Positions 37,432 through 64,000 of a DNA stretch of 64,000 nt are shown in pieces; position 1 is the first letter of the stretch; the number at the start of each line of letters is the position of its first letter. The notes under the pieces were generated by a model. The model ran no database searches, had not been told where the DNA came from, and was given only the letters and a program-made list of their open reading frames with translations. Position numbers and translations under genes: made by a program. Origin of the DNA: an uncultured Eubacteriales bacterium (GTDB lineage: Bacteria; Acidobacteriota; Aminicenantia; Aminicenantales; UBA4085); the NCBI GenBank assembly GCA_964556755.1, contig CAZKXI010000005.1, positions 94,762-158,761 on the forward strand, in the 5' to 3' direction.

Positions 37432-39468
37432 TCACTTCAGCCAGGCGGCCAGCCAGTCCAGCTTGGTCTTCCACCACAGCTCGGCGTTCTGGGGCTTGCT
37501 GACGAAGTGGTCCTCGTCGGGGAAATAGAGCAGCTTGGACGGCACCTTCATCCGCTGCAGGGAGGAGAAGAGCTGCAAGCCCTGCTCCAAGGGCACTCTC
37601 AGGTCGTTCTGGCTGTGGATGACCAGGGTCGGGGTCCGGAAATTCTTGATGTAGTAGCTGGGCGACCACTTGGTGTACTGCTCGGGGTTGGTCCAGGGCG
37701 TGCCCTGCTGCTCCCACTCCGGGAACCACAGCTCCTCGGTCGATCCCCACATCGAGCGCAGGTCGAAGACGCCGTCGTGCGAGATGAGGCCCTTGAAGGC
37801 GTCGGTCTGGCCCAGGATCCAGTTGATGAGGTAGCCGCCGTAGGAGGCCCCGGCGGCGCCGGCCACGGTCTTGGAGATGAAGGGATAGGTCGCCCGCAGG
37901 TAGGCCAGGCCCTTCATGATGTCCTGGTAGGGCTTGCCGCCCCAGTCGCCGACGATGGCGTCGGAGAAAGCCTGGCCGTAGCCGGCCGAGGCATGGAAGT
38001 TGATCTCGGCCACGACCCAGCCGCGGGCCGCGTACATCTGGGTGTTCCAGCGGTAGTGGAACTCGTCCTTCCAGGGGCCGTGCGGGCCGCCGTGGATGAG
38101 CATGACCAGGGGGTAGACCTTCTTGGCGTCGAAGGCCGGCGGCTTGAGCAGCCAGCCATGGACCTTGTCCTTGCCGGCGCCCTCGAACCAGAACTCCTCG
38201 GCCGGATTCATCTCCAGCCCGGCCAGAAGCTCCTTGTTGGTCTCGGTGATCCGGCGCCAGGCGGCCGCGGCCGCGTCGAAGGCCCAGACGTCCGCCGGCC
38301 GGTCCATGGCCTGCTCGAGCATGACGAAGGTCTTGCCGTCGGGCAGGAGGCTGAGGGCCGAGAACGTCCGGCCGCCCATGATCCGCTCGACCTTGCCCCC
38401 GGGAATGGCGACCTTGTAGAGGGCGTTGCGGCCCTTCTCGTCGGCGGTGAAGTAGACGGCCGTGGAGTCGGAGGACCAGACCGTCTCGTCCACCGACACG
38501 TCCACGGCCTTGGTCAGGTTGACGGCGGTCTTGGCCGACCGGTCGTAGAGCACGAGGTCCAGCTTGTCGGACTCGTAGCCCGGGCGGGCCATGGCCTTGT
38601 AGGCCAGGTACTTGCCGTCGGGGGAGTAGCTGGGCTGGTTGTCGTTGGCCTTGTTCGCGGTGATGGCGACGGCCGGGCCGCCCGAGGCGGGAGCGACAAA
38701 GACGTCGTTGTTGGTCCCGATGCCCATCTTGAGCTCGGGATCGACGTTGCGGACGAAGGCGACTTCCTTGCCGTCGGGCGAGAGGGCGTAGTCGAGGTGG
38801 CCGCCCAGATCGAGCGGGGGGGCGTCGTAGTCGCCGGTCGTGACGTCCACGGCCTGGCCGCCCGTGGCGGGGGCCACGAAGACGTGGCTGCGGGTGCCGT
38901 CGCTCCAGGCGTTCCAATAGCGGTGGAAGAGGGTCTCGTAGATGCGGCCCTTGACCTTGCTCTTCTCCGCCGCTTCCATCATCTTCTTGTTGGACTCGTC
39001 GTCGGCCGCCCCGGGAAAGACCGAGGAGGCGAAGGCGATGCTTTGGCCGTCGGCGGACCAGACGACGCCGGTGGCGCCGCCCGAGAGGCTGGTGGCCTGC
39101 CAGGGCTCGCCGCCGTCCAGGCTGATCATCCAAACCTGGGGCGAGCCGGCGCGGGTGGAGATGAAGGCCAGCTTCCGGCCGTCGGGAGACCAGCGGGGCG
39201 TGTTGTCCCCGCCGGGAGCCGTGGTCAGGCGTCTCGGCTCGCCGCCGGTCGCGGGGACCAGCCAGATGTCGCTGTTGCTGCGGTTGGCCTCCTTGTCCAT
39301 GACCGTGACGACGTAGGCGATCCACTTGCCGTCGGGTGACGGCTGGGGATCGGTCACCCGCTGGATCCTGATGAAGTCGTCGAAGGTCAGGGGCTTACCG
39401 GCCTGGGCCAGGGCCAAGGACGCGGCCAGCGCCAAGCCTAGGATAACGAGTGGGATGCGCTTTCTCAT
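37432..39468 (-). CDS. S9 family serine peptidase (prolyl oligopeptidase/acylaminoacyl-peptidase-like) with N-terminal beta-propeller
   Basis: Signal peptide, a TolB/WD40-like propeller, and a C-terminal alpha/beta hydrolase with GxSxGG (GASYGGY) and catalytic Asp/His. Confidence 0.85.
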   Translation of the reverse strand: MRKRIPLVILGLALAASLALAQAGKPLTFDDFIRIQRVTDPQPSPDGKWIAYVVTVMDKEANRSNSDIWLVPATGGEPRRLTTAPGGDNTPRWSPDGRKLAFISTRAGSPQVWMISLDGGEPWQATSLSGGATGVVWSADGQSIAFASSVFPGAADDESNKKMMEAAEKSKVKGRIYETLFHRYWNAWSDGTRSHVFVAPATGGQAVDVTTGDYDAPPLDLGGHLDYALSPDGKEVAFVRNVDPELKMGIGTNNDVFVAPASGGPAVAITANKANDNQPSYSPDGKYLAYKAMARPGYESDKLDLVLYDRSAKTAVNLTKAVDVSVDETVWSSDSTAVYFTADEKGRNALYKVAIPGGKVERIMGGRTFSALSLLPDGKTFVMLEQAMDRPADVWAFDAAAAAWRRITETNKELLAGLEMNPAEEFWFEGAGKDKVHGWLLKPPAFDAKKVYPLVMLIHGGPHGPWKDEFHYRWNTQMYAARGWVVAEINFHASAGYGQAFSDAIVGDWGGKPYQDIMKGLAYLRATYPFISKTVAGAAGASYGGYLINWILGQTDAFKGLISHDGVFDLRSMWGSTEELWFPEWEQQGTPWTNPEQYTKWSPSYYIKNFRTPTLVIHSQNDLRVPLEQGLQLFSSLQRMKVPSKLLYFPDEDHFVSKPQNAELWWKTKLDWLAAWLK

Positions 39469-39658
39469 GGGGCTCCTCCGTGATGGGGCTGTCAGAGGCC
39501 CGATTATAGTCCAGACGGAAATAGGGGTACAGTATACGTAATTCCCGATTTCCTCTTCTGTGCCTTCGCGGCTCTTGACACGTCACGGCCCTAATTTTCT
39601 GTAGGGATTGGAAGCGTAAACAAAAAGTTCGGGAATTATGTATGGTGTCCCCCAATTA

Positions 39659-39714: not shown

Positions 39715-40644
39715 GTGACAGAGCCGACCGAGACCAACATCGAGCTCAAGGGGCTTCGCTTCCGCTACGGGGCGGTCCAGGCCCTGGACGGGGTCGATCT
39801 GACCATCGGCGGCGGCGCCTGCGGCCTGCTGGGCCCCAACGGCGCCGGCAAGAGCACCCTCCTGCGCATCCTCCTGGGCTTCCTCGTCCCCGACGCGGGC
39901 GAGGGCCGCGTCCTCGGCCGCGACATCCGCCGCGACCCCTTCGCCATCCGCCGCCTGGTCGGGTACATGCCGGAGGACGACTGCTTCCTGCCCGGCCTGG
40001 ACGCCGTCTCCTTCACAGCCTACTTTGGCGAGCTGTCGGGCATGCCCCGCCGCGAGGCGATGAAGCGGGCCCATGACGTCCTCTTCTACGTCGGCTTGGG
40101 CGAGGCTCGCTACCGCCAGCTGGAGACCTACTCGGCCGGGATGCGCCAGCGGATCAAGCTGGCCCAGGCCCTGGTCCACGACCCTCAGCTCCTCTTCCTG
40201 GACGAGCCGACCGCCAACCTCGATCCCCGCGGCCGGGCCGAGGTCCTGGACTTGATCAAGGAGATATCCTCCCGCAAGGATATCAACGTCCTGATCTCCT
40301 CGCATGTCCTCTCCGACATCGAGGCGACCTGCACCGACGTCGTCATCCTCAACAAGGGCCGGGTGGCCGCCCAGGGAAAGCTGGAGGCGCTCAAGCAGGT
40401 CGACTTCAGCCTCTTCGAGCTGAAGGTCAAAGGCGAGGCCGATCCCTTCCTGGCCGCCTTGCGCCGGGTCCGCTGCCGGATCGAGGAGACCGAGGACGGG
40501 CTATACAAGCTCTACGTGCCGCCCGAGGTGGGCCGGGGCGGAGTCTTCCGGGCGGCCGCGGCCTCCGGGGTTCAGATCCGCCACTTCGTCCAGAGCCAGA
40601 CCTCCCTGGAGGACCTCTTCGCCCGCACGGTGGGGGTGGACTGA
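39715..40644 (+). CDS. ABC transporter ATP-binding protein (ABC-2 type) with C-terminal accessory domain
   Basis: Walker A (GPNGAGKST), signature (YSAGMRQR) and Walker B (LLFLDEP) motifs. Confidence 0.85.
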   Translation: MTEPTETNIELKGLRFRYGAVQALDGVDLTIGGGACGLLGPNGAGKSTLLRILLGFLVPDAGEGRVLGRDIRRDPFAIRRLVGYMPEDDCFLPGLDAVSFTAYFGELSGMPRREAMKRAHDVLFYVGLGEARYRQLETYSAGMRQRIKLAQALVHDPQLLFLDEPTANLDPRGRAEVLDLIKEISSRKDINVLISSHVLSDIEATCTDVVILNKGRVAAQGKLEALKQVDFSLFELKVKGEADPFLAALRRVRCRIEETEDGLYKLYVPPEVGRGGVFRAAAASGVQIRHFVQSQTSLEDLFARTVGVD

Positions 40645-41509
40645 TGCCGATCGCCGAGCAGGGCTATCTCCACTGGCAAGGGCGTCCGGCCGCGACCCAG
40701 AAGCCCTGGCGGGCCATCAGCCGCCTCGGCATCCGCCTGGCTTTCCGCCGCAAGTTCTTCAAGCTGACGCTGGGCCTGGCCCTGCTCCCGGCCCTGGTCT
40801 TCTCCGTCGGCATCTACCTGGCGGAGACGATCGAGAACTTCCAGATCTCCATGGGCGGCCGCCGGCAGATTCTGAGCGTCGATCCGAAGTTCTTCCAGAC
40901 CTACTTCACCTCGGACTTCCTCTACTTCATGATCATGATGATGATGATCCTGGCCGGCTCGGGCCTCATCGCCGACGATCTCAAGTCGGGCAGCCTGCAG
41001 CTCTACTTCGCCCGGCCGCTGCGCAAGCGCGATTACCTGCTCGGCAAGCTGGGCGTGACGGGCTTCTTCGCCCTCCTGGTGACGCTCGTGCCCGGGATCG
41101 TCTTCATCCTCCTCAAGGCCATCTTCGCCGGCGGCTTGCAGCTACTGGCAGCCCATCCCTGGCTGCCCCTGTCCGTCATCCTCTACTCGCTCTTCCTGGC
41201 CGTCCTCTTCTCCCTGGCCACTCTCTTCTTCTCGGCCCTCAGCAAGAACCGCCGCTTCGCCGGCATCATGCTGTTTCTGGTCTACTTCGGCTCCCAGGTG
41301 GCCTACGCCGTCTTCGACGAGATCTTCCGCGTCCCGGAGCTCGGCTGGCTCTCCATCCAGGTCAATCTCCAGCAGGTCGGGGCGGCCCTCTTCGGCGGGA
41401 GCCCGCCGGTGAACGCCCCCTGGCCCGTCTCCGCCCTCATCCTGGCCGGGCTGGCCGGAGTGGCGATCTTCTTCCTCTTCAAGCGCATCCGCAGCGTCGA
41501 GGTGATCCG

Positions 41510-41513
<4 letters not shown>
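40644..41513 (+). CDS. ABC-2 family transporter permease
   Basis: Six predicted TM helices, downstream of the ATPase. Confidence 0.7.
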
Positions 41514-52363: not shown

Positions 52364-53797
52364 TCAGCGAGGGTCGGTGCGCAGGAACGAGGCGTAGGCG
52401 GCGGCGAAGACGGCCAGGGCCAGCCCGGTCAAGACCAGAAACGGGATCCAGACCGCCTGCCAGCGCTCCGCGGCCGTCTGCGGCCTGAAGACGAAGCGGG
52501 GCATGTCGCTGACGTCGACGGGGGTGTTCCAGGCGTCCCGGGTCGGTTCGTCTCTCTGGATCGCCTCGATCTTCTTGCCGGCGTAGTCCCTGTACTGACT
52601 CCACCAGGCCGAGGCCAGCTCCTGGAAGTGAGCTTGGCCCTTCAGCCCCGTGCCCGAGGCGTCGGCGGAGTAGTAGGTGAAGGCGGCCATGGGTGAGACC
52701 GTCGAGAGGGCTACCGCGAGATTGGTCTGGGCTTCTTCCTTGAGCCGAAGGTCGTCCTCCAGGGCGGCGGCCTTGGCGCCCTGGATCCGATTGGCCTCAT
52801 CCCAGCCGGACTGCCCGGCCTTGCGCCACAGACCGTATGCCCGGGCGAAGCCCGCGTCGCGGCCCAGGGCGGCTTCGATCTCGGCCTTGGACATCTTCTC
52901 CAGGCCGGCCAAGACCGGGTTATCCCTCAGGACGACGGCCCTCTTCTCGCCGGCCAGGCGATTCCCCAGCGCGTCCCGGTCCACGTCGGTCAGCCGTCTG
53001 ACCTCGCGGCCGACCTTGATGGCCGAAGGCGCCGGCCGAAGGAGCGATGCGGCGTAGGGGCTGAGATTGGGCAGGACGAGGACGGCCAGAACCCAGACGA
53101 ACAGGGCTGTCATGATGGAGGAGCCGCTGGCCTGGTGTCGGGCCGAGATCCAGAGACCCAGTCCGTAGAAGAGGGTCAGGTAGACGATCGATCCGGCGGC
53201 GATGAGGCCGAGGGCCGTCCAATCCGGCCCGGCCCAGCCGAGCCCCGGGCGGGCCAGAAGGAGAATCAGGCTGAGGACCAGGGAGACAAGAAAGGGGATG
53301 AGCAGGGTCGCCACCCCGCCGGCCATCTTGGCCAGGATGACGGTGGACCGCGGCATGGCGTTGGCCAGGATGAGCTTTAAGGTCCCGTCCTCACGCTCGC
53401 CGCAGACGGCGTCATAGGACAGGATCAGAGCCGCCAGGCTCATCAAGACGGCGACGATGAAAGTCAGATCGAGGAAGGGAAACATGACCGGCAGGGGATC
53501 GTTGTCGAACGATTCCAGCTGGACGTCGTCCGAGAGGCCCCGGACCAGGGCCTGGATCGGGAGCGGCGGCCGGGCCGGCGCGACGACGCCCTGCAGGCGG
53601 TTGAAGTGGGCGTAGCTGGCCAGGTAGCGCTCCACGGCGGCCCTCCGCTCGGAGAACTCGGCCTGGCGTCGGGCCGCGTCGCTGGATAAAACGAGGACGG
53701 CGGCCGGCAGCAGGGCCAGCAGCAGGACAAAGACGGCCTGGAAACGGAACGAAAGGAAGTGGTTGCGGATCTCTTTCCGGACCATCGCTCCAAACAT
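52364..53797 (-). CDS. ABC-2-like transporter permease paralog 2
   Basis: Start MFGAMVRKEIRNHFLSFRF and end ...FLRTDPR match the paralog consensus. Confidence 0.68.
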   Translation of the reverse strand: MFGAMVRKEIRNHFLSFRFQAVFVLLLALLPAAVLVLSSDAARRQAEFSERRAAVERYLASYAHFNRLQGVVAPARPPLPIQALVRGLSDDVQLESFDNDPLPVMFPFLDLTFIVAVLMSLAALILSYDAVCGEREDGTLKLILANAMPRSTVILAKMAGGVATLLIPFLVSLVLSLILLLARPGLGWAGPDWTALGLIAAGSIVYLTLFYGLGLWISARHQASGSSIMTALFVWVLAVLVLPNLSPYAASLLRPAPSAIKVGREVRRLTDVDRDALGNRLAGEKRAVVLRDNPVLAGLEKMSKAEIEAALGRDAGFARAYGLWRKAGQSGWDEANRIQGAKAAALEDDLRLKEEAQTNLAVALSTVSPMAAFTYYSADASGTGLKGQAHFQELASAWWSQYRDYAGKKIEAIQRDEPTRDAWNTPVDVSDMPRFVFRPQTAAERWQAVWIPFLVLTGLALAVFAAAYASFLRTDPR

Positions 53798-53808
53798 GCC
53801 CTCTCTCC

Positions 53809-55041
53809 TCATCGCACGTCCGCCTTGGCCACGGCCGCGTAGGCCGCGGCGAAGAGGAGCACGGTGACGGCCAGCAGCCAGGCCGTATCGACGAGACCCC
53901 CTTCGGCCAGGACTCGGCCCAGGGATCTGTACCGGTAGTCGAAAGCGGGGATGTCGGTCGAACCGGCCTCCAGGAGGGGCAGAACCCGGTTCTTGTAGCC
54001 GATGATCTCCCTCTTCAGCCGGCTCTCCTCGTCGATGCCCGTCCCGGCCGCCTCGGTCGCGGTGGAGGCGAAACCGGCCGCCGGGGAGAGGCGGTTGATC
54101 GTCTTGGCCAGCCGGACCAGGCGGCCGAAGCGGACCCTGTAGTCTTCCTCCATGCGGTCAAGCTCGTCGTTGATCGCCGCCAGGTGCGGAGCCCGCCCCT
54201 CCGGGTCCGTGTAGGAAAGGAGGATCTCGCGCGACCAGACTTGGTCCCGCTTTTCGGCCAGCGCTTTGACCGAGGGCACGTCGACGAGCTGGCGGGCGGC
54301 CAGGGTGCCCAGGTTGGGCAGAACGAAGACGAGCAGGGCCCAGGCCACGAGCAGGATGACGAGAGAGGACGAGGAGCGCCGGGTCAGGGCCGAGACGAAC
54401 AAGCCGAGGCTGAGAAAGAGGGCGATATAAGCCAGGCTGAGGCCGAGCAGAAAGGCCAGCCGAACGGCCTGGCCGCCGCTCAGTCGGAAGGACGGGGACA
54501 GGCCGAGCAAGGCGATCCCGATCATCGTGACCAGGAGGAAAGGGACGGCCAGGCTGGCCAGGCTGCCCAGCCACTTGCCGGCCATCAGCGTCGAGCGGGG
54601 CAGAGCGTTGGCCAGCTGGAGCTTTAGGGTCCCGTTCTCCCGCTCCCGGCTGACGAGATCGAAGCCGAAGAGCAGGGCCACGAGCGAGAGGACGATCTTG
54701 ACCACGTAGACGAAGTCGGGGGCCGGAAAGAAGGCGAAGACGGGATTGCCGCCGCCGCGGCCGGTCCGGGCCTCGATTCCGGTGAGCCCGACCTCGAAGG
54801 ATCGGGTCATGGCCTCGTCCAGGCCCTTGGCGAAGACCGACAGCGGATTGGGCGGCAGGACCGCGATCGGCTGGCCGGGATCGGGCCGGATCAGCTGGTA
54901 GTCGGCCTGCCGGGCCCGGAAGTCGCGGCCCATCACGAAGAGCGAGGTGAAGATCAGGACCGAGGCCAGCAGGATGACGATGAAGAACTTGTAGCTGAGG
55001 AGATTCGCGGCGATCTCTTTCCTGACGATGGTCCCGATCAT
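53809..55041 (-). CDS. ABC-2-like transporter permease paralog 3
   Basis: MIGTIVRKEIAANLLSYKF ... AKADVR. Confidence 0.7.
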   Translation of the reverse strand: MIGTIVRKEIAANLLSYKFFIVILLASVLIFTSLFVMGRDFRARQADYQLIRPDPGQPIAVLPPNPLSVFAKGLDEAMTRSFEVGLTGIEARTGRGGGNPVFAFFPAPDFVYVVKIVLSLVALLFGFDLVSRERENGTLKLQLANALPRSTLMAGKWLGSLASLAVPFLLVTMIGIALLGLSPSFRLSGGQAVRLAFLLGLSLAYIALFLSLGLFVSALTRRSSSSLVILLVAWALLVFVLPNLGTLAARQLVDVPSVKALAEKRDQVWSREILLSYTDPEGRAPHLAAINDELDRMEEDYRVRFGRLVRLAKTINRLSPAAGFASTATEAAGTGIDEESRLKREIIGYKNRVLPLLEAGSTDIPAFDYRYRSLGRVLAEGGLVDTAWLLAVTVLLFAAAYAAVAKADVR

Positions 55042-55050
55042 GGCCGCGGC

Positions 55051-55791
55051 TCAGGCCGGCAGGGGCTCGGACTTCATGTAGTCGATATAGATCTTGACCA
55101 GATCTTCGACCTGGAGCTCCTCGCGGGTCCGCTCCATGACCAGCCGGCCCTCCTTCATGATCCCGACCCGGTCGCCGATCTCCTTGGCCCGGAAGATGTC
55201 GTGGGTCGACATGAGGATGGCCTTGCCCTCGGCCTTGAGCTCGCGGAGGATGTCCTGGAACTCCTCGGCCGCCTTGGGATCGAGGCCGGAGGTCGGCTCG
55301 TCGAGCAGGATCGCCGCGGCATCCTTGATGATGGCGATGGCGATGCCCAGCTTCTGGCGCATGCCCTTGGAGAAGGTCTTGACCCGCTGCTCGAAGGCCT
55401 TCTCCTGCAGCGACACCCGGCGCATGACCTGGTAGTACTGCTCCCGGGCCAGGTGGGGCTTGCCGCCCAGCTTGGCGAAGAAGTCCAGGTTCTGGCGGGC
55501 CGTGAAGTTGCCGTAGAGCATGACGTTCTCGGAGACGAAGGCGACGTGCCTCTTGGCCTCCAGCGGGTCGCGGGCCACATCGATGCCGTTGATGAGGCAG
55601 CGTCCGGTCGTCGGCGGGATGAAGCCCAGGAAGAGGTTGATGGTCGTCGTCTTGCCGGCCCCGTTGGCGCCCAGCAGACAATAGACCTCGCCCGCCCGGA
55701 CGGTCAGGTGGAGATGGTCCAGGGCCAGGACGCCGTCCTCGTAGCGCATGGACAGGTCGTCGGCCTTGAGAATGACGGATCGTTCGGTCAT
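55051..55791 (-). CDS. ABC transporter ATP-binding protein (paralog of 51619..52335)
   Basis: ATG at 55791 (MTERSVILKADDLSMRYEDG). Walker A (GANGAGKTTT), signature (FSKGMRQK) and Walker B motifs. The upstream track extension is spurious. Confidence 0.85.
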   Translation of the reverse strand: MTERSVILKADDLSMRYEDGVLALDHLHLTVRAGEVYCLLGANGAGKTTTINLFLGFIPPTTGRCLINGIDVARDPLEAKRHVAFVSENVMLYGNFTARQNLDFFAKLGGKPHLAREQYYQVMRRVSLQEKAFEQRVKTFSKGMRQKLGIAIAIIKDAAAILLDEPTSGLDPKAAEEFQDILRELKAEGKAILMSTHDIFRAKEIGDRVGIMKEGRLVMERTREELQVEDLVKIYIDYMKSEPLPA

Positions 55792-55823
55792 GGGATGCTC
55801 CTCAGGGCGCGCGCCGGGCGGCC

Positions 55824-57305
55824 TCAGCGGCGGGTCAGCTTGATGCCGAAGACCACGACCCCGACCAGGAGGCCGACCAGGAGCAGGGCCAGCAGGACGA
55901 CGCCCAGGACGTTGGTCTTGGAGGCCACGTGGACCCGCACGATCTTGTCCTCGGACTCGACCTTGCGGTTGTCGGCGCTGCATTCGGTCTTGATCTTGGG
56001 CTCGTAGTCGCCCACGGCCACGTCGGCCGGGGGCAGGAACTGGATGCGGACGACCTCCTCCTTGCCCTGCTCCAGCGCGGCGATCAGGTCGGGGGAGATC
56101 TCGGATCGCCAGTTGAGCGGCAGGTCGGCGGCGATGTGAATGTTGTTCAGCGGCCGGGTGCCGGCGTTCTTGACCCTGACCTCCATGTCGACGCTCTGGC
56201 CGACCCGGATCTCGTGATAGAGATTGACCGCCTGGACCTCGATCTTGCCCACGCCGCGGGGGATGAGCTCCAGCTTGACGTGGCCCGCCTTGAGGGCGGC
56301 GATGTCGGCCGGCTTGACCTCGCCGCGCTCCCGGACGGCCTGCAGGCCCGCGGCTTGCTCGTTGTCCAGGGCCAGGGCGTAGAAGGCCAGGGGCTTGTCG
56401 ATGACCACTTGGGCGTCGGCGTTCTTGGGCAGATAGAGCTTCAGCTGCAGCTTCATCGAGGTGACGCCCTCGGTGAACTTGATCTGGGACAGGCGGGCCT
56501 GGGTGGTCGGGTCGGAGAACTCGTAGTTGACCGGCCGGGGCAGGTTGGCCAGCTCCAGTTTGAAGACGTTGGCCTCGCCGGAGAACTTCTCCAGCGACAG
56601 GTCGTAGGTAGCGGTGCTCTCCAGGTCGGCCTCCTGCGAGAACTGGGCCGAGTTGACGGTCACGATGTTGGCGCTGACTCCCTTCTGCAGGTAGACCGAG
56701 GTCGTCTCGGACTTGCCGGAGTAGAAGACGCTGACGTCCAGGTTCTCGACGTCCTTGAGCAGCTGGAAGGTCACGTCCCGCTCCGTCTCGAGCGGCATGG
56801 AGGAGATCGTCTTCTCGTAGGGATCAGAGATGATCTTGGCCTCCGACTTGAGCGAGACCGAGACGTCCTTGATCTCCTTCATGAAGTCGACCGGGAAGAG
56901 GTCCTCGGCCTTGATGGCCAGGTTGTCCAGCTGCTTGAGCTCCTTGGAGGAGTAGCGCAGGGTGACCCGGACGAACTTCTTGCCGCCGGCGTCCTGGAAC
57001 TTGACGGCGCTGGCCACGTTGATGCGGGCCTCGCTGCCCATGAAGGCGATCAGGGCCTGCTGGAAGTCGACCTGGGCCTGCAGGTAGGCCGTCTGGACCA
57101 GGGCGAACTCCTGCTCGGAGGTCAGGCCCTGCTCCTTGAGCTTCAGGGAGCGGTCGAAGTCGCCCTTGGTCTTCTCCTTCTGGAGCTGGGCCTTCTTCAG
57201 GGTCAGGAGCTTCATCGTCTGCGACGGCGCTTCCTGGGCGGGCAGGGCGGCGGCCGCCCCGAACAAGAGGAATCCGGCCATGATGGCCGCGGCGAGCTTT
57301 CTCAT
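55824..57305 (-). CDS. Membrane-fusion-protein-like periplasmic adaptor with inverted topology (signal peptide, HlyD-like coiled coil, beta domains, C-terminal TM anchor)
   Basis: N-terminal signal peptide, a coiled-coil heptad region (QLQKEKTKGDFDRSLKLKEQGLTSEQEFALVQTAYLQAQVDFQQA), ~350 aa of beta-rich sequence, and a C-terminal hydrophobic helix VLGVVLLALLLVGLLVGVVVFGIKLTRR. Start overlaps the TolC-like stop. Confidence 0.6.
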   Translation of the reverse strand: MRKLAAAIMAGFLLFGAAAALPAQEAPSQTMKLLTLKKAQLQKEKTKGDFDRSLKLKEQGLTSEQEFALVQTAYLQAQVDFQQALIAFMGSEARINVASAVKFQDAGGKKFVRVTLRYSSKELKQLDNLAIKAEDLFPVDFMKEIKDVSVSLKSEAKIISDPYEKTISSMPLETERDVTFQLLKDVENLDVSVFYSGKSETTSVYLQKGVSANIVTVNSAQFSQEADLESTATYDLSLEKFSGEANVFKLELANLPRPVNYEFSDPTTQARLSQIKFTEGVTSMKLQLKLYLPKNADAQVVIDKPLAFYALALDNEQAAGLQAVRERGEVKPADIAALKAGHVKLELIPRGVGKIEVQAVNLYHEIRVGQSVDMEVRVKNAGTRPLNNIHIAADLPLNWRSEISPDLIAALEQGKEEVVRIQFLPPADVAVGDYEPKIKTECSADNRKVESEDKIVRVHVASKTNVLGVVLLALLLVGLLVGVVVFGIKLTRR

Positions 57306-58921
57306 TGGTGGGCCTCCCCGGCGTCGGTGATCTTGATGGCGCGCTTGTCCAGGCTGGTGCCCGTAGCCTTGTCCAGCAGGCCGCGGGCCAGGGTATAGTC
57401 GACGAGGGCCCGCAGCTCCGCCGTCTTGGCGGCGGCCAGGTCCCTCTGGTAGGTCAGGACGTAGAAGTTGCTGCTGAGGCCGACCTTGAGCTTGGCCTCC
57501 TCGGCCTGCAGCTTCTCCTCGGCCAGCTCGCGGGCCGAGCGGCGGGCCAGGACCCGCTCGTAGTTGGTCTCGACGGCCCGCACGGCGGCCCGGATCTCGA
57601 TGACCGCGGCCTGCTGGCGCTGCTTCAGGACGGCCGTCTGCTGGTCCAGCCCGGCCTGGGCCTGGGCCCGGGCGGCCCGGGTGAAGACCGTCGACAGCGG
57701 GATGTCCAGCGACACGGCCACGGACCAGTTGTCGTACTTGAATCGGAGGGCGTCTTGGACGGCCTGTCCGGAGCCGCTGGAGACACGGCCGATGATGATG
57801 CCGGTCAGGGGATTGTCGTCCTGGAAGAGGATCCGGTCGCCGGACAATCCCGGGCTCCAGTAGCGGGTGGTCAGGTTCAGCGCCGGCAGGGTCTGGTTCT
57901 TGGCGTAGGCCAGGCTGATCTGCTTGTTGCGGATGCCGAGCGTGGCGGACTGCAGGTCGGGCCGGTTGAGGAGGGCCACGGCCAGGGCTTCCTCCAGGCC
58001 GATCTCGGCCGGGACGAGGCGGGGCGTGTCGGAGGGGACGAGATCGGCCGCATCCCGGCTGAAATCGAGGTTCAGCAGGCCGCGCAGGGTGTCGGAGGAG
58101 TCCCGGACCAGCATCTCGGCCTGCAGGATGTCGGCCTTGCGGCTGGCCACCTCGGCCTGGGCGCTGATGACCTCCTTGGGAGCCAGGGTGCCGATGGCGG
58201 CCTCCTTGCGGCTCTTGTCGAGAAGGTCCTCGGCCAGGGCCAGGGACTGGCGTTGCACGGCCAGCGACTCGATCCGGTAGACCAGCTCCCAGTAGTTGGT
58301 CTCGACGGCATAGACCGTCTCCAGCAGGGCCGCCTTGAGGTCGTTGCCGGCGATGTCCCGGTTGTTGCGGGCGATGAGGATCTCCTGGCGGCTGGTCGCC
58401 CAGCCGAAATCCTTGAGCAGGGGCTGGGTGTAGGCGAAGGAGAGGCGCCCGCTGTAATAGGGATTGATGGTCTGGAAGGCCGAGTTCGAGTTGTAGCGCT
58501 GGGTGGCCATGGACAGGGACAGCGAGCCTCCCAGCGGGGCGTTCTGGCTGATCGTGCCGGTGTAGGAACGGGACTGGTTGGCTACGACCTCGGCCGCGTC
58601 GATCCAGGAGTAGGAGGCCGAGTTCTGGCTGTCGTTGTAGTAGTCGAACGACAGCGTGGGCAGGAATTTCTCGCCGGCCTGGACCAGGCCGTGATCGGCC
58701 TGACGGAAAGTCAGGACTTGGACCGTGACGCCGAGGTTGCGCCGGACCGCTTGCGCGATGCAGTCCTCCAGGGACATGGCCTGGGTGGCTCGGGCGGACG
58801 CGGCCGGCTTGTCCTGGGGGGCCAGGAGCGCCGGCGGTCCGGCCGGCAGGAGGGCCGGCAGCAAGAGCAGGATCGCCGGCAGAGCCGGGCCGAGGCCGTG
58901 GGGCCAGCGGAATTTTTTCAT
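57302..58921 (-). CDS. TolC family outer-membrane efflux protein
   Basis: Signal peptide and two repeats of the OEP alpha-helical/beta-barrel pattern (LSLEDCIAQAVRRN...; LGLEEALAVALLNRPDLQ). Confidence 0.8.
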   Translation of the reverse strand: MKKFRWPHGLGPALPAILLLLPALLPAGPPALLAPQDKPAASARATQAMSLEDCIAQAVRRNLGVTVQVLTFRQADHGLVQAGEKFLPTLSFDYYNDSQNSASYSWIDAAEVVANQSRSYTGTISQNAPLGGSLSLSMATQRYNSNSAFQTINPYYSGRLSFAYTQPLLKDFGWATSRQEILIARNNRDIAGNDLKAALLETVYAVETNYWELVYRIESLAVQRQSLALAEDLLDKSRKEAAIGTLAPKEVISAQAEVASRKADILQAEMLVRDSSDTLRGLLNLDFSRDAADLVPSDTPRLVPAEIGLEEALAVALLNRPDLQSATLGIRNKQISLAYAKNQTLPALNLTTRYWSPGLSGDRILFQDDNPLTGIIIGRVSSGSGQAVQDALRFKYDNWSVAVSLDIPLSTVFTRAARAQAQAGLDQQTAVLKQRQQAAVIEIRAAVRAVETNYERVLARRSARELAEEKLQAEEAKLKVGLSSNFYVLTYQRDLAAAKTAELRALVDYTLARGLLDKATGTSLDKRAIKITDAGEAHQ

Positions 58922-58963
58922 GGGCGTGTCTCCGGGCTCGAGTGCTTCATCGAGCCGAACAAT

Positions 58964-58979
58964 TGCACGAATCGTGCCA
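58964..58979 (-). promoter_or_regulatory. Sigma-54 (-24/-12) promoter TGGCAC-N5-GTGCA for the TolC-MFP-ATPase-permease operon
   Basis: Minus-strand TGGCACGATTCGTGCA gives a GG-N10-GC match, ~40 nt upstream of the TolC ATG at 58921. Confidence 0.55.
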
Positions 58980-59074
58980 AGGATTCATACGGCGGGACTC
59001 GGGGGAAGTTTCCCTTCCGCCGGGAATCGCATTACCCGCCCCGGGCACACTCTTACCCGAATGACCTGAATTAG

Positions 59075-59120
59075 CAGACACAAACCGAATTCAGTTTCCA
59101 GACACATACCGAATTCGCAG
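59075..59120. repeat. Tandem 24-bp direct repeats CAGACACA(A/T)ACCGAATTC (candidate enhancer-binding-protein sites) between divergent sigma-54 promoters
   Basis: CAGACACAAACCGAATTCAG at 59075 and CAGACACATACCGAATTCGCAG at 59099, with a partial third unit (CAGACTGACAC) at 59118, in a locally AT-richer segment. Confidence 0.5.
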
Positions 59121-59200
59121 ACTGACACTTGCCCGCGTCAAGGCCCATACTCGGTCTGAAGCCGTCGCCTATTGTCTTGCTTGCCCTCGGCTCTTCCGGA

Positions 59201-59216
59201 TGGCATGTTCCTTGCA
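59201..59216 (+). promoter_or_regulatory. Sigma-54 (-24/-12) promoter TGGCAT-N5-TTGCA upstream of the permease 4/5-HK-RR operon
   Basis: TGGCATGTTCCTTGCA, ~58 nt upstream of the ATG at 59274; AAGGAG RBS. Confidence 0.6.
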
Positions 59217-59273
59217 ATTCCACTTCAAGAGGCGAAGTCGTTTGCCGCGCGCTGTTGCGCCAAGGAGCGGGTC

Positions 59274-60881
59274 ATGGTCTTTCATATCGCCAGGAAAGAG
59301 TGCCTTAACAACCTGCTTTCGGTGCGCTTCTTGATTGGCCTTCTCCTCTGTGTCGTCCTTATCCCCTTCAGCATCCTGATCAACGTGGACGACTACCGGG
59401 ACCAACTGGGACAATACAAGGTTGATAAAGACGCGGCTGACAAATCGCTGGCGGAAATTCGAACCTATTCCTATCTCAAGCCCATCGTCGTCTTTCCCCC
59501 CGAGCCGCTGGGCATCTTCGGCAAGGGCCTGAGCGCGCAGGTCGGCAACCAGGTTAAAATTCGGCTCGGGGAAGCACCCTTGCTCGCGGAGGGCAAGACC
59601 GCGGCCCGGGATAATCCGTTCCTGGCCTCGTTCTTTTCCGTCGACTTCGTCGATATCGTGGCCATCATCTTCTCGCTTCTGGCCCTGCTCTTCAGCTACG
59701 ACGCGCTGACCCGGGAGAAGGAGGACGGCACGCTCCGCCTCCAGATGGCCAACTCGCTGGGCCGCTCGAAGCTGTTGGCCGGGAAGGTGGTCGGGATTCT
59801 GCTGACGCTTCTTCCGGTCATCGTTTTCTGTTTTCTGATCGGGGGCGTCATCATCCTAGTCTCGGGCGAGCTGGCTTTTTCAGCCGGGGAATGGGGCCGC
59901 TTGGCCGTGCTGGCCCTGCTCAGCCTGGTTTATCTCGTGGTTTTCGTCTTTTTGGGGCTCCTGGTTTCTTCGCGGACCAGGGATTCGATCACCAGCCTGG
60001 TCATCTGCCTGTTTCTTTGGGTCATCCTCGTCTTTCTCGTCCCCAACCTCGCCTCGACCTTCGCCGACAGCTTCGTCCCCATCCAATCCCGCGACAACCT
60101 GACGGCCGTCATGCGGGATATGGACAAGTCCCTGCAGGAGAGGTTGGACGTCGAACGCAAGAAGCTGCCCGCGCCCGATTGGTGGATGAGCTGGTACATG
60201 AACGGCGGCGATGACGGCGCCCAGGAGCAGTACGGCTGCTCGGCCTCTTATTTCGAGCATACCCGGCAACGGATGACCATCAGCGAGCCGATGCGGATCG
60301 ACAACGCCGGCCGGAAATGGGGGCCGCAGAAGGCCTACTTGGACAGCCTGGTCTACCAGGCCAGGGCCGCGGACAACCTGGCCCTGTTGTCCCCGGCGGG
60401 CATCTTCAGGATGGTCGCCACGGCGGTCTGCGGGACCGACCACCAGGCGCAAAGGAAGCGCCTGGACGACGTCCGCCGTTACCGGGAGGACTTTATCGCT
60501 TACTTTAAAAGCAAGAAGATCTTCGAGAAGTTCGAGTACATCACCCCGGTCCCGCCAGCTTCGTTCCGCAGCGCCGACCAGCTCGTGGAGGCCCGCACCG
60601 GCGGCAAGTTCAAGTCGCTCGCGGAGTATGACGCCTGGGGGGCCACCCAGACGGATGTGAGGGCCAGATTCCAAATTCTACGGACGGTCAACGTGCGTGG
60701 AGAGCAGCCCGATGATTTTCCCTTTCTCAAGGTCACCGACATGCCCCGATTCCCCGAGCGCCCGGTTTCGGTGGCGGGGCTGCTTGAAGGCTCGGTTCTG
60801 CGGCTCGGGCTGCTGCTCTTTGAATGCCTGCTTCTCTTCGCTCTGGCCTATGTGGCCTTCATCCGCTACGACGTGAGGTGA
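59274..60881 (+). CDS. ABC-2-like transporter permease paralog 4
   Basis: MVFHIARKECLNNLLSVRF ... FIRYDVR; the largest paralog (535 aa). ATG at 59274, inside the track ORF. Confidence 0.7.
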   Translation: MVFHIARKECLNNLLSVRFLIGLLLCVVLIPFSILINVDDYRDQLGQYKVDKDAADKSLAEIRTYSYLKPIVVFPPEPLGIFGKGLSAQVGNQVKIRLGEAPLLAEGKTAARDNPFLASFFSVDFVDIVAIIFSLLALLFSYDALTREKEDGTLRLQMANSLGRSKLLAGKVVGILLTLLPVIVFCFLIGGVIILVSGELAFSAGEWGRLAVLALLSLVYLVVFVFLGLLVSSRTRDSITSLVICLFLWVILVFLVPNLASTFADSFVPIQSRDNLTAVMRDMDKSLQERLDVERKKLPAPDWWMSWYMNGGDDGAQEQYGCSASYFEHTRQRMTISEPMRIDNAGRKWGPQKAYLDSLVYQARAADNLALLSPAGIFRMVATAVCGTDHQAQRKRLDDVRRYREDFIAYFKSKKIFEKFEYITPVPPASFRSADQLVEARTGGKFKSLAEYDAWGATQTDVRARFQILRTVNVRGEQPDDFPFLKVTDMPRFPERPVSVAGLLEGSVLRLGLLLFECLLLFALAYVAFIRYDVR

Positions 60882-60884
60882 GCC

Positions 60885-62279
60885 GTGTGGAAAGCCGTCC
60901 TCAAGCGCGAAATCCAGCATAACCTCTATAGCTTCCGCTTTCTCCTGGCGCTCGTCCTGATCTTGTGCGTCTTCATCGCCGGGTCGCTGTCCTTCATCCG
61001 CTCCCACGCCGGCGCCCTGGCCAAGGACCGTGAAGCCCGCGGCATCGCGACCCGAGTCCTCGAGGAAGACGCCGCCAACGCCACCCGCCTGGCCGTGCGC
61101 CATCGTAGCTACGACTTCCGTCCCCGCGACAATGCCTTCCTGGCCGACGCCAAGGAAAAATACCTCCCCAATTCGATCGAATACAGCGCCTGGAACGTCT
61201 TCGGCTTCCAGAACAAGAGCGGCAGCGCTAATCCCTTCCTGGCCCGCTATGATGAGCTGAGCTGGGTCTTTGCCGCCGCCCTTCTGGTCAGCTTCATTTC
61301 CCTTCTCTTCACCTTCGATGCCGTCTCGGGCGAGAAAGAGACGAAAACCCTGTCCCTGGCCTTGGCCAATCCCGTGTCGCGCGGTACGCTCCTCTTCGGC
61401 AAGTACGCCAGCGCGGTCCTGTCGGTGATGGCGGCTGTTCTGCCGGGCGTCCTGGTCAGCCTGCTTATCCTGATCATCTCGGGCATCATCGGCTGGAGCT
61501 GGACCCTGGGCGCGGAGGTTGCGGCCTTCCTGCTGGCCGCGGGGCTGCTGGCCGCGTCGATGGCCGCCTTCGGTCTGCTCTGCTCGGTCCTGGCCCGCAA
61601 TTCCAACGTCAGCCTGCTGCTGGGCCTCTCGGTCTGGCTTCTCTTTGCCGTGGTCATCCCCAACTCGAGCGGATTTCTGGCCAAGAAGCTCTATCCGATC
61701 GCCAAGGCCGAAGCGGTCGGGGAGAGAGTCAACAGGGTCTACGACGACTTGACCAAGGCTGCCCCCCCGGGAAGCTGGATGTCGGATTCGTCCAACCCGT
61801 TCCTTCCTCAGCACGAATTGCGGGCCAATCTGCAGCGCAAACGGCTGCAGGCGCTCAAGTCCATCCGGGATGATTATTTCCGGACCATGTTCCGGCAGTA
61901 CGAGCGGACGAGACGGTTGACGGCGCTGTCTCCGGTGGCCGCTTTCGAATACCTGGCTGAATCCATCTCCGGCGGCGGCTACCCCCGTTTCCGGCGGGCC
62001 TGGGAAGATATCCACGTCTTCCAAGGGCAGTTCCAGGCTTTCTTCACCTCCTTCGACGCGGCGGACCCCAAAAGCCCGCATTGGTACAATCCCAACGAGG
62101 ATGTCTCTACGACCCGGCAGAAGGTCTCGGTCGACATCGTGCCCCGATTCTCCGAGCGGCCGATGGCGTTGGCCGACCGGCTCGCTCCGGCGCTGCCGCA
62201 TCTGGGCGTCCTGGCTGCGTCGGCGGGCCTGATTTTTCTGCTCAGCTTCTTTCTCTTCGTCCGCTACGACGTCCGTTGA
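60885..62279 (+). CDS. ABC-2-like transporter permease paralog 5
   Basis: MWKAVLKREIQHNLYSFRF ... FVRYDVR. Confidence 0.7.
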   Translation: MWKAVLKREIQHNLYSFRFLLALVLILCVFIAGSLSFIRSHAGALAKDREARGIATRVLEEDAANATRLAVRHRSYDFRPRDNAFLADAKEKYLPNSIEYSAWNVFGFQNKSGSANPFLARYDELSWVFAAALLVSFISLLFTFDAVSGEKETKTLSLALANPVSRGTLLFGKYASAVLSVMAAVLPGVLVSLLILIISGIIGWSWTLGAEVAAFLLAAGLLAASMAAFGLLCSVLARNSNVSLLLGLSVWLLFAVVIPNSSGFLAKKLYPIAKAEAVGERVNRVYDDLTKAAPPGSWMSDSSNPFLPQHELRANLQRKRLQALKSIRDDYFRTMFRQYERTRRLTALSPVAAFEYLAESISGGGYPRFRRAWEDIHVFQGQFQAFFTSFDAADPKSPHWYNPNEDVSTTRQKVSVDIVPRFSERPMALADRLAPALPHLGVLAASAGLIFLLSFFLFVRYDVR

Positions 62280-62318: not shown

Positions 62319-62327
62319 TGATATAAT
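62319..62327 (+). promoter_or_regulatory. Extended -10 promoter element TGaTATAAT upstream of the histidine kinase gene
   Basis: Perfect TATAAT with an upstream TG, 16 nt before the ATG at 62343; weak -35. Confidence 0.35.
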
Positions 62328-62342
62328 GGCCCTGGGCCCATC

Positions 62343-63578
62343 ATGAAGCTCTTCCACGCCCGCCGCCGCGACGAGAAGCTGCCCCTCCTCGTCTTTCGCG
62401 AGTTCGAAGCGGGCGTCAACCTGATCGAAGACTACGACCAGATCGCCCGCAACTTCCTGGGCAAGATTCGGGAGGTCTGTCCCGCCCCCAAGCTCCTCCT
62501 GCTCGTCCACGACTCCATCAGCGGGCGCTTCCAGCCGGCCGCCTCCGTGGACGTGGGCGAGGCCGAGGCCCGGGCCGCCGTCATCCCGCGCGACTCGCGG
62601 CTGGCCAAGTGGCTCAAGCTCAACGAGACCCACCTGGAGCTCAAGCGGAGTCCCGGCCTGGACGGCTATCTGAGGCCCAAGGAAGCCGGCCTCCTGGCCT
62701 CCTTGGGCATCGAGACCGCCTTCCCCCTGATCTCGATGAACCGCCTGATCGGCATCCTCCTGGTCGGCGGCAAGCCCGGCGGCGCCCCCCTGTCCCGGAC
62801 GGAGATGGCCTTCATCCGGGCCCTTCTGCCCCAGGCCGGCATCGCCCTGGAGAACGCCCTGCTCTTCAAGGAGCAGCGGGAGCGCTTCCGGCGCATGTCG
62901 CGGGCCGACCGTCTGGCCACGGTCGGCGAGCTGGCCGCGGGCGCCGCCCACGAGATCCGCAATCCCCTGACCGCCATCCGATCCACCCTTCAATACCTCG
63001 AATCCAAGGTCGCCGAGGAGGCCTCCCGGCGGCTGATCGCCTCGGCCCTGCAGGAGACCGGCCGCATCAACGACATCGTCTCGGCCCTGCTGGCCTTCTC
63101 CCGCCCGGCCGAGATCGTCCGCGAGCGCCACGATCTGCGCCAGACCCTGGCCGAGAGCTTGGAGCTGGTGGCTTTCCAGGCCCGCTCCAAGGGGGTGACG
63201 GCCCACAGCGAGCCGACGGCCGAACCGCTCCCGGTCCTGGGCGACCGCTCCCAGCTCAAGCAGCTCTTCCTGAACGTCTTCCTCAACGCCATCCAGGCCA
63301 TGCCCGCCGGAGGCGACCTGCGGATCGAGGCCTCGGCCGGGCCGCCCGGCAAGGCCCTGGTCGCCGTCAGCGACACCGGCGAGGGCATCCCCGAGGAGAA
63401 TCTGGACCGCGTCTTCGACCCCTTCTTCACGACCAAGAAAGGGGGCACGGGCCTGGGCCTGTCCATCTGCTACAACATCGTCAAGTCGCACGGCGGCGAC
63501 ATCGAGGCGCGCCGCCGGCCCGGCTCGGGCACGACGATCCTCATCCATCTGCCGCTCGACGGAAGCGAGGCGCCATGA
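62343..63578 (+). CDS. Cytoplasmic sensor histidine kinase (GAF-like N-terminus, HisKA, HATPase_c)
   Basis: No TM segments. H-box (AAGAAHEIRNPLTAI), N box, and G1/G2 motifs (DTGEGIP; GGTGLGLSI). Confidence 0.82.
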   Translation: MKLFHARRRDEKLPLLVFREFEAGVNLIEDYDQIARNFLGKIREVCPAPKLLLLVHDSISGRFQPAASVDVGEAEARAAVIPRDSRLAKWLKLNETHLELKRSPGLDGYLRPKEAGLLASLGIETAFPLISMNRLIGILLVGGKPGGAPLSRTEMAFIRALLPQAGIALENALLFKEQRERFRRMSRADRLATVGELAAGAAHEIRNPLTAIRSTLQYLESKVAEEASRRLIASALQETGRINDIVSALLAFSRPAEIVRERHDLRQTLAESLELVAFQARSKGVTAHSEPTAEPLPVLGDRSQLKQLFLNVFLNAIQAMPAGGDLRIEASAGPPGKALVAVSDTGEGIPEENLDRVFDPFFTTKKGGTGLGLSICYNIVKSHGGDIEARRRPGSGTTILIHLPLDGSEAP

Positions 63579-64000
63579 AGCTCAAGATCCTGATCGTCGA
63601 CGACGAGCAGGCCATCCGCGACATCTTCTCGCTCCTGCTGGAGGAGAAGGGCTTCGACGTCGCCACGGAGGCCAGCGGCCGCGACGGCCTGGCCCGGGCC
63701 CGCTCCTTCGTCCCGGACGTCCTGCTCCTGGACATGAACCTGCCGGACATGACCGGCCTGGACGTGCTGGCCGGAGTGAAGGACACGCTGCCCGCCTGCC
63801 GGATCATCGTCGTCACCGCCTTCGGCACGATCCGCAACGCGGTCGAGGCCACCAAGCGGGGCGCCTACGCCTATCTGGAGAAGCCGGTCGACAACGAGGA
63901 GCTGCTCCTGCTGATCGAGCGGGCCTTGGAGGTCCGCCGGCTGGAGGCCGAAGTGGCCGGCCTGAAGGCCGAGCTCAGCGCCCGCTACCGCTTCTCGGAG
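63575..64000 (+). CDS. Sigma-54-dependent (NtrC-family) response regulator, 3'-truncated by the window end
   Basis: ATG overlaps the HK stop (ATGA). Receiver domain (ILIVDDE...LLLDMNLPDM...KRGAYAYLEKP), then the start of the AAA+ sigma-54 activator domain (RYRFSE...). Not in the ORF track. Confidence 0.75.
   Translation, partial: MKLKILIVDDEQAIRDIFSLLLEEKGFDVATEASGRDGLARARSFVPDVLLLDMNLPDMTGLDVLAGVKDTLPACRIIVVTAFGTIRNAVEATKRGAYAYLEKPVDNEELLLLIERALEVRRLEAEVAGLKAELSARYRFSE

Follow-up and report, generated by a model that had tools for sequence, protein, structure and literature searches.

A 352-bp segment of intergenic DNA (positions 58922-59273) separates divergently oriented genes for an outer-membrane efflux protein (OEP) and an ABC-2 permease within the 64,000-nucleotide stretch of DNA analyzed here, which we call the window. 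We consider it likely that this segment serves as a bidirectional sigma-54 control region whose enhancer is a pair of tandem 16-bp dyads, rather than the more eye-catching 24-bp direct repeats found close by. An earlier, sequence-only reading of this DNA located the control region correctly but took the wrong element, namely the direct repeats, for the enhancer.

The segment carries two divergent sequences with the -24 and -12 elements of sigma-54 promoters:

58979..58964, minus strand: sigma-54 promoter, TGGCACGATTCGTGCA, with GG at -24 and GC at -12.
59201..59216, plus strand: sigma-54 promoter, TGGCATGTTCCTTGCA, with -24 and -12 elements.

Judged by their motifs and their distribution, these two promoters are real and are conserved in other Candidatus Aminicenantes genomes. 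The pattern TGGCAY-N6-TGCW has only these two matches in the 64-kb window, compared to 0.24 expected from shuffled sequences, and both promoter assignments of the sequence-only reading are thereby confirmed. The promoters begin 58 nt (minus strand, ATG at 58921) and 73 nt (plus strand, ATG at 59274) from the start codons that they precede, and an AAGGAG ribosome-binding site lies ahead of the permease ATG on the plus side. Transcription is estimated to start near position 58953 from the minus-strand promoter and near 59227 from the plus-strand promoter. A sigma-70 scan of the region returned one weak, non-conserved match (59122-59151), which we disregarded. Because a motif search for the RpoN box in the window and in all related loci retrieved gave no match, the presence of sigma-54 in this organism is something that we infer.

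The genes on either side of the control region form an envelope and ABC-exporter cluster together with a two-component system:

57302..58921, minus strand: OEP gene, first in the minus-strand operon (Pfam, synteny).
55824-57305, minus strand: NEW3-domain gene of the same operon (Pfam).
55051-55983, minus strand: ABC ATPase gene of the same operon (Pfam).
53809-55041 and 52364-53812, minus strand: two ABC-2 permease genes of the same operon (Pfam).
59274-60881 and 60885-62279, plus strand: two ABC-2 permease genes under the plus-strand sigma-54 promoter (Pfam).
62343..63578, plus strand: histidine kinase gene with HisKA and HATPase_c domains (Pfam).
63575..64000, plus strand: NtrC-family response regulator gene, incomplete, running off the end of the window.

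The regulator gene stops at residue 142 in the window, and a Logan contig (L003) that encodes an identical histidine kinase and reaches beyond the window end extends the protein to 244 amino acids. This portion includes a receiver domain, the Walker A motif GESGTGKE, and the loop sequence GAFTDA. An ortholog in locus L004 that is 89% identical over those 244 residues has the domain order REC, Sigma54_activat, AAA_lid, and HTH_8, with PF00072 and PF00158 matched at 2e-67. The Fis-type helix-turn-helix (HTH) domain is represented by HTH_8 in this ortholog (1.8e-11), beyond the point where the L003 sequence ends. The best match of the ortholog among solved structures is Aquifex NtrC1 (4l4u). GAFTDA is retained in nine regulator orthologs, and it is among the GAFTGA variants that are expected to stay active (PMC4641369). 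From its receiver domain and its AAA+ region with Walker A motif and GAFTGA-type loop, the window protein can be assigned to the NtrC family, and the earlier proposal that an activator of this family ends the plus-side string of genes therefore stands.

Transcripts from the plus-strand promoter possibly read through to the two downstream genes, those for the kinase and the regulator. In addition, an extended -10 box of the sigma-70 type (TGATATAAT, 62319-62327) precedes the kinase gene itself; it is kept in L004 and L005, and of it the TATAAT hexamer alone is found in L006. This box would give basal expression.

To place the region in a comparative context, we used 21 related genome loci and seven further orthologous contigs (L145-L151), the latter retrieved only after the dyad hypothesis had been formed. 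All related loci come from Candidatus Aminicenantes / Acidobacteriota metagenome-assembled genomes. The closest relative, L145, shows 77% protein identity, and no relative above this value was present in the protein collection searched. The gene module occurs in three arrangements. Arrangement A is the divergent layout seen in the window. In arrangement B, the OEP, regulator, and kinase genes share one strand and the NEW3, ATPase, and permease genes occupy the other. Arrangement C is found without a kinase or regulator gene nearby. A canonical -24/-12 promoter precedes the operon in arrangements A and B and is missing in C.

Both promoters are maintained in orientation and spacing among the orthologs. 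In L004-L009, L011, L021, and L145-L151, the plus-strand promoter precedes the ortholog of the permease gene. The minus-strand promoter was found in L007, L008, L009, and L145-L149, and also in L004 and L005, where the 58-nt distance to the OEP start codon is kept as well.

Between the two promoters, and nearer to the minus-strand one, are two dyad-symmetric elements:

59022-59037, no strand assigned: dyad 1, GGGAATCGCATTACCC, proposed half of the enhancer, or upstream activating sequence (UAS).
59043-59058, no strand assigned: dyad 2, GGGCACACTCTTACCC, proposed second enhancer site.

The dyads are 21 bp apart, which corresponds to two helical turns and places them on the same face of the helix. 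Their centers lie at about -76.5 and -97.5 from the start of minus-strand (OEP) transcription and at about -176 and -197.5 from the plus-strand start. They thus have the geometry of a UAS, being two sites with dyad symmetry located within 70-200 bp upstream of a sigma-54 promoter. The consensus derived from 37 sites is GGGaAA-N4-TTACCC. On either strand of the 64-kb window, TTACCC occurs only at the two dyads, and GGGNANNNNNTTACCC is found twice compared to 0.03 expected. Taken by itself, the loose pattern GGGNANNNNNNTNCCC shows no enrichment in the window (3 matches, 2.4 expected). What makes the dyads significant is their TTACCC half-site, together with their arrangement in tandem and their conservation.

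Conservation of the dyads is extensive. Among sites that match GGGTAANNNNTTACCC at 10 or more of 12 positions in 454 kb of Aminicenantes DNA, 18 of 21 are located upstream of the sigma-54 promoters of this module. A tandem pair precedes the promoter in every sigma-54 version of the region examined (19/19), and tandem dyads are likewise present in all seven loci retrieved after the hypothesis had been formed. The start-to-start distance is 21-22 bp in most loci; the exceptions are L151 (20 bp), L147 (31 bp), L149 (32 bp), and L006, where a degenerate second site lies about 34 bp from the first dyad. The second dyad is also weaker in L011 and in three loci with arrangement B (L015, L019, and L023), which have a clear first dyad and, 22 bp downstream, a weaker GGGTAA half-site. 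In these three loci the dyads are again found beside kinase and regulator genes and a sigma-54 promoter. Loci with arrangement C, which have no sigma-54 promoter, carry neither tandem dyads nor a kinase/regulator pair.

Measured from the estimated start of the nearer promoter, dyad centers recur at about -76, -97, and -119, which suggests that the sites are subject to face-of-helix constraints. The phasing relative to the promoter deviates in L147, L148, and L149. Based on sequence and conservation, the tandem dyads show the signature expected for the sites of a dimeric activator with a Fis-type HTH, and they are a better candidate than the 24-bp repeats and most likely the enhancer. The proposal that one enhancer drives both operons is plausible in this form: a single dyad enhancer probably serves both promoters, and it is the identification of that enhancer with the direct repeats that fails.

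We infer from co-localization and conservation that the regulator encoded by the cluster itself binds the dyads. The kinase/regulator pair adjoins the dyad-bearing sigma-54 region in all nine genome loci with enough flanking sequence, and this association spans two gene arrangements. One alternative is that the dyads are bound by another regulator, either an enhancer-binding protein encoded elsewhere or a repressor, and that the cluster regulator uses a site that has gone unrecognized. Two loci (L007 and L011) are compatible with such a scheme, as they have dyads and sigma-54 promoters with no kinase or regulator gene within the 10 kb of flanking DNA examined; there, the gene for the regulator might lie at another locus, or some other enhancer-binding protein might act. 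The consistent pairing in the nine loci speaks against this alternative, as does the alignment of the intergenic regions of the window, L004, and L005, in which no other conserved dyad is visible. We therefore regard it as quite improbable and favor the cluster-encoded regulator as the protein that would occupy the dyads.

The direct repeats that first drew attention to this region consist of two copies of CAGACACAWACCGAATTC placed 24 bp apart (59075 and 59099), namely CAGACACAAACCGAATTC (59075-59092) and CAGACACATACCGAATTC (59099-59116), followed by a partial third copy. This agrees with the earlier description of repeats at 59075-59125, except that the partial copy, which starts with GCAGAC at 59117, is offset by 19 bp rather than 24. 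The two copies are the only matches in the window at three or fewer mismatches, with 0.03 expected. Tandem Repeats Finder did not score the 24-bp array, and its sole report was an unrelated 12-bp array at 58823-58861. The segment is also AT-richer, as had been noted before, with a G+C content of 42% in 59060-59125 compared to 67% for the whole window. Comparison with related loci allows the repeats to be divided into the following units:

59068..59092, plus strand: REP/REPIN-like unit 1, GAATTAGCAGACACAAACCGAATTC, ortholog of the left arm of an inverted repeat in L004, L005, and L145.
59093..59116, plus strand: REP-like unit 2, AGTTTCCAGACACATACCGAATTC, a 24-bp tandem duplicate that is not in L004 or L005.
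59117..59129, plus strand: partial third unit, GCAGACTGACACT, of repeat family D2, GAATTAGCAGAC / GAATTCGCAGAC.

When the window is aligned with L004 and L005, unit 1 matches the left arm of an inverted repeat of 26-27 nt. In the two relatives, the right arm of this repeat lies 68-69 nt downstream of the left arm and just before the -24 box of the plus-strand promoter. The inverted form is also present in L145. In the window, the right arm is missing and unit 2 appears as a specific 24-bp insertion. Single-strand folding agrees with this picture: the window copy (59068-59129) has a z score of -1.2 and hence no hairpin potential, and the orthologous elements reach -9 to -13 (L005, -9; L008, -13). 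From the alignment, the right arm has been lost in the window and the left arm has been duplicated in tandem. This most likely leaves the direct repeats as a decayed, functionally neutral passenger, or at most as a spacer.

The repeats belong, by sequence, to a dispersed family of REP/REPIN-like palindromic elements. With an nhmmer profile of the arm, copies were detected in 17 of the 21 related genome loci. Nearly all are intergenic, and many lie directly 3′ of the stop codons of permease or NEW3 genes. The copies usually form inverted pairs that differ in spacer length (4-230 nt) and have unrelated interiors, and they are sometimes nested. The core varies by genome, being GCAGACAC in the window and GGGGACAC or GGTGACAG elsewhere. 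A second element of the family is present in the window itself, in an unrelated divergent intergenic region:

39520-39657, no strand assigned: second family element, with inverted 29-nt arms and an 80-nt spacer (folding z score, -2.7).

REP/BIME elements and REPINs, the latter being REP doublets that form hairpins, have been defined previously (PMC3116915, PMC3337134). The family described here resembles them in having extragenic units of about 25 nt that occur mostly as inverted doublets with variable spacers and long hairpins, in being dispersed and often positioned after stop codons in ABC-transporter operons, and in having genome-specific subtypes whose single or rearranged copies are decayed remnants. 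There are differences as well. The window unit is rich in A+T, has GAATTC at its ends and GACAC at its core, does not by itself form an imperfect palindrome, and comes from a different phylum. A search of the window and related loci for the HuH...Y..NP motif of a cognate RAYT (an IS200/IS605-like Y1 transposase) gave no match. Rfam at gathering thresholds likewise returned no match anywhere in the window, and therefore the repeat family is not a curated RNA family. A classification as a MITE was rejected, given that the interiors differ in length (4-230 nt) and sequence even at orthologous sites and that no consistent target-site duplication was seen. The REP-like family appears to be undescribed for Aminicenantes.

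The distribution of this family bears directly on the proposal that the direct repeats (59075-59125) are the UAS for the NtrC-family regulator and drive both promoters. Their location is suitable, as they lie 76-126 bp from each -24 box, a normal distance for an enhancer, and unit 1 occupies the orthologous position in L004, L005, and L145. In addition, L004 and L005 carry the same subtype immediately ahead of the promoter of the kinase gene, which could be read as autoregulation. However, family members also occur in arrangement-C loci that have neither sigma-54 promoters nor the regulator (L012, L014, L016, L017, and L024). Conversely, the unit is absent from nine orthologous regions that retain the promoter and the dyads (L006, L007, L009, L011, L021, L147, L148, L150, and L151).

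The sequence-only reading had suggested looking for the same repeat upstream of other genes, and the unit is indeed found beside other genes in a manner that does not favor an activator site. The exact subtype AATTCGCAGACACATACCGAATTC, to which the core of unit 2 is identical, occurs in at least 20 metagenome contigs, mostly as tight hairpins. The neighbors are unrelated to the module; one is a tRNA gene, and others are open reading frames with a likeness, judged by translation alone, to malic enzyme, an oligopeptide transporter, and a formyltransferase. These contigs have neither ABC-2 genes nor tandem dyads nearby. When metagenomes were scanned for CAGACACATACNNAATTC, most of the matches were single ones that occur by chance in low-GC contigs, and matches were counted only when they had the flanking AATTC...GAATTC context or an inverted partner.

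The form of the repeats is a further difficulty for this proposal. Dimers of Fis-type HTH proteins usually need dyad sites. The repeat unit is not a dyad, and its orientation and spacing vary from direct in the window to inverted with spacers of 4-230 nt elsewhere. This free geometry and the lack of dyad symmetry make the repeats a poor fit to a dimeric Fis-type HTH. Taken together, these data make it very improbable that the direct repeats are the activator site, and they leave the conserved dyads as the preferred candidate.

Another possibility is that the REP-like elements have been co-opted for a role other than that of an activator site. They might be bound by an architectural or nucleoid protein (IHF/HU-like or REP-binding), or form a cruciform in the relatives, and in this way help to bend the approximately 170-200 bp that separate the enhancer from the distal plus-strand promoter. 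In seven orthologous loci, exactly this spacer holds REP-like elements, which represent at least two to three subtypes and whose arms directly adjoin dyad 2 and the -24 box. The units reach a density of 7.1 per kb in these spacers, compared to 0.4-0.6 per kb in the remaining non-coding DNA of these loci (roughly 12-18-fold), an excess that rests on only about three independent insertion events and that leaves room for a local role. The arms are conserved and the interior is not, and across the window, L004, and L005 the conservation of the left arm equals that of the dyads. IHF binding between enhancer and promoter is common at sigma-54 promoters, and some E. coli BIME/REP elements have IHF sites.

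Several observations weigh against such a role. The nine orthologous regions listed above have no REP-like element at all. Because the inverted structure has been destroyed in the window, any role that depends on an inverted repeat would be lost there. Inspection of the repeats by eye revealed no match to the IHF consensus. Finally, conservation of arms is expected in REPIN populations even when there is no local function (PMC3116915), so that this feature can be explained without one. We consider it unlikely that binding or cruciform formation by these units bends the spacer. There is a similarly small probability that a new REP/REPIN-like family has been repeatedly captured between the enhancer and the distal promoter as an architectural module that, protein-bound or cruciform, shortens or bends the 170-200-bp path much as IHF does in Proteobacteria, with the tandem direct copies in the window as a variant of that module. 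An architectural, IHF-like role of the spacer elements seems improbable to us.

Based on the dyad-enhancer model, we propose the following course of events for the 352-bp region as a bidirectional control region of the envelope and ABC-exporter gene cluster. Sigma-54 RNA polymerase holoenzyme would be positioned at both divergent -24/-12 promoters, as predicted from their sequence and conservation. The adjacent histidine kinase would phosphorylate the cluster-encoded regulator, two dimers of which (REC, AAA+ with GAFTDA, and Fis-type HTH) may then occupy the dyads and nucleate an active AAA+ oligomer or ring. By DNA looping, this oligomer could reach the OEP promoter, which is proximal (sites at about -76 and -97), as well as the permease promoter, which is distal (the same sites, at about -176 and -197). 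Looping to both promoters would therefore induce the whole exporter and outer-membrane module together, perhaps with co-induction of the two-component genes through read-through. The direct repeats would be a decayed REP-like element in a tolerant spacer between the enhancer and the distal promoter.

By analogy with other systems, the architecture of this control region appears to be an ordinary case of a known type, as represented by zraP/zraSR and by DVU2106 and the orp operons. At the enteric glnAp2 promoter, the oligomer is nucleated at two dyad sites for NtrC, an activator with REC, AAA+, and Fis-type HTH domains; these sites lie about 100-140 bp upstream of the sigma-54 promoter. The candidate sites in the window differ from these in sequence and spacing: they are separated by 21 bp, are located at about -76 and -97 relative to the nearer promoter, and could act on two promoters.

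The zraP/zraSR locus of E. coli and Salmonella has two divergent sigma-54 promoters in one short intergenic region, both under the control of ZraR, and one of these promoters transcribes the operon for the kinase and the NtrC-family activator (PMC4987338). This locus (ZraR is also called HydG) shares with the window the divergent sigma-54 layout and a two-component activator encoded at the locus itself. In addition, the central and C-terminal domains of ZraR (1ojl) are a strong sequence match to the L004 regulator ortholog. However, where the zra system targets a periplasmic chaperone, the putative targets in the window are an OEP, a NEW3-domain protein, and an ABC-2 exporter with multiple permeases, and the DNA comes from another phylum, Aminicenantes. 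The dyad sequence GGGaAA-N4-TTACCC does not correspond to a described site for ZraR, and the window kinase gene also has a sigma-70-type -10 box of its own.

A second parallel is DVU2106 of Desulfovibrio vulgaris, a cognate enhancer-binding protein that carries the GAFTDA variant and co-regulates two divergent sigma-54 orp operons (PMC4641369, citing Fievet et al. 2011). The likeness is one of features: both systems combine the same loop with divergent sigma-54 operons. DVU2106 is a one-component activator with unrelated targets, whereas the window protein is a response regulator.

These results provide a candidate cis-regulatory map for a conserved, uncharacterized envelope and exporter module in Candidatus Aminicenantes, a phylum that is uncultured. 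The parts of this map are two sigma-54 promoters, tandem copies of GGGaAA-N4-TTACCC as a candidate activator site, and a cognate two-component system. Among the ten top-ranked results of a literature search on sigma-54, RpoN, or REP in Aminicenantes, no paper mentioned this group. The example also illustrates how direct repeats that catch the eye near promoters can be passengers that stem from a repeat family spread through the genome, and therefore comparative data are needed before such repeats are called an enhancer. For studies of genome evolution and of the boundaries of mRNAs, the REP-like family holds modest interest.

Three gene arrangements of the module comprising OEP, NEW3 and ABC-2 genes are found among related loci. 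In one arrangement (L015, L019 and L023), the OEP gene lies on the same strand as the regulator and kinase genes, and it carries its own sigma-54 promoter directly 3′ of the regulator stop codon (near positions 1854, 485 and 2055, respectively). In another (L012-L014, L017, L022 and L024), there is no nearby kinase or regulator gene, and both the sigma-54 promoters and the tandem dyads are absent. These module versions instead have in common a different conserved upstream sequence. Because the regulatory genes and the DNA elements are missing together and another conserved sequence is present, the sequences imply that the regulatory mode of the module has switched between lineages.

The sequence features of the window considered in this section are as follows.

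37432-39468, minus strand: S9 peptidase gene
39520-39548 and 39629-39657: REP/REPIN-like inverted pair with 29-nt arms and an 80-nt spacer, the second family member in the window
39715-41513, plus strand: ABC ATPase and ABC-2 permease gene pair
58823-58861: 12-bp tandem array, CAGGAGGGCCGG × 3.2, within the stretch of the OEP gene that encodes the N-terminal signal peptide
59001-59016: GGGAA-GT-TTCCC palindrome, GGGGGAAGTTTCCCTT, about 21 bp from dyad 1 toward the minus-strand promoter
62319-62327: extended −10 box, TGATATAAT, 15 nt ahead of the histidine-kinase ATG (62343)

The palindrome has a counterpart in L005, GGGTTTCCCTTCC, and none that is clear in L004. This element may represent a compressed, third site for the activator; alternatively, the resemblance could simply reflect shared ancestry.

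Given that the extended −10 box is only 15 nt from the kinase ATG and that no Shine-Dalgarno sequence is present, the arrangement suggests that the kinase and regulator genes are expressed from a short-leader sigma-70 transcript. The box is kept in L004 and L005, and its TATAAT hexamer is kept in L006. All three loci also carry a REP-like hairpin immediately upstream of this box, 3′ of the permease stop codon. The regulator (window positions 63575-64000, together with 2721-3452 of contig L003) has nine examined orthologs (L004-L009, L015, L019 and L023), every one of which carries GAFTDA rather than the canonical GAFTGA as its sigma-54 contact loop.

The second REP/REPIN-like element of the window occupies the divergent intergenic region between the S9 peptidase gene and the ABC ATPase and permease pair. 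Direct arrangements of this family also occur outside the window, as shown by a mosaic cluster in L027 (4510-4640) that resembles a BIME-type array, wherein several GGGGACAC and GTGTCCCC units are both direct and inverted. In the metagenome contig L081 (7233-7497), REP-like hairpins lie on either side of a tRNA gene, and their subtype is that of the repeat of the window.
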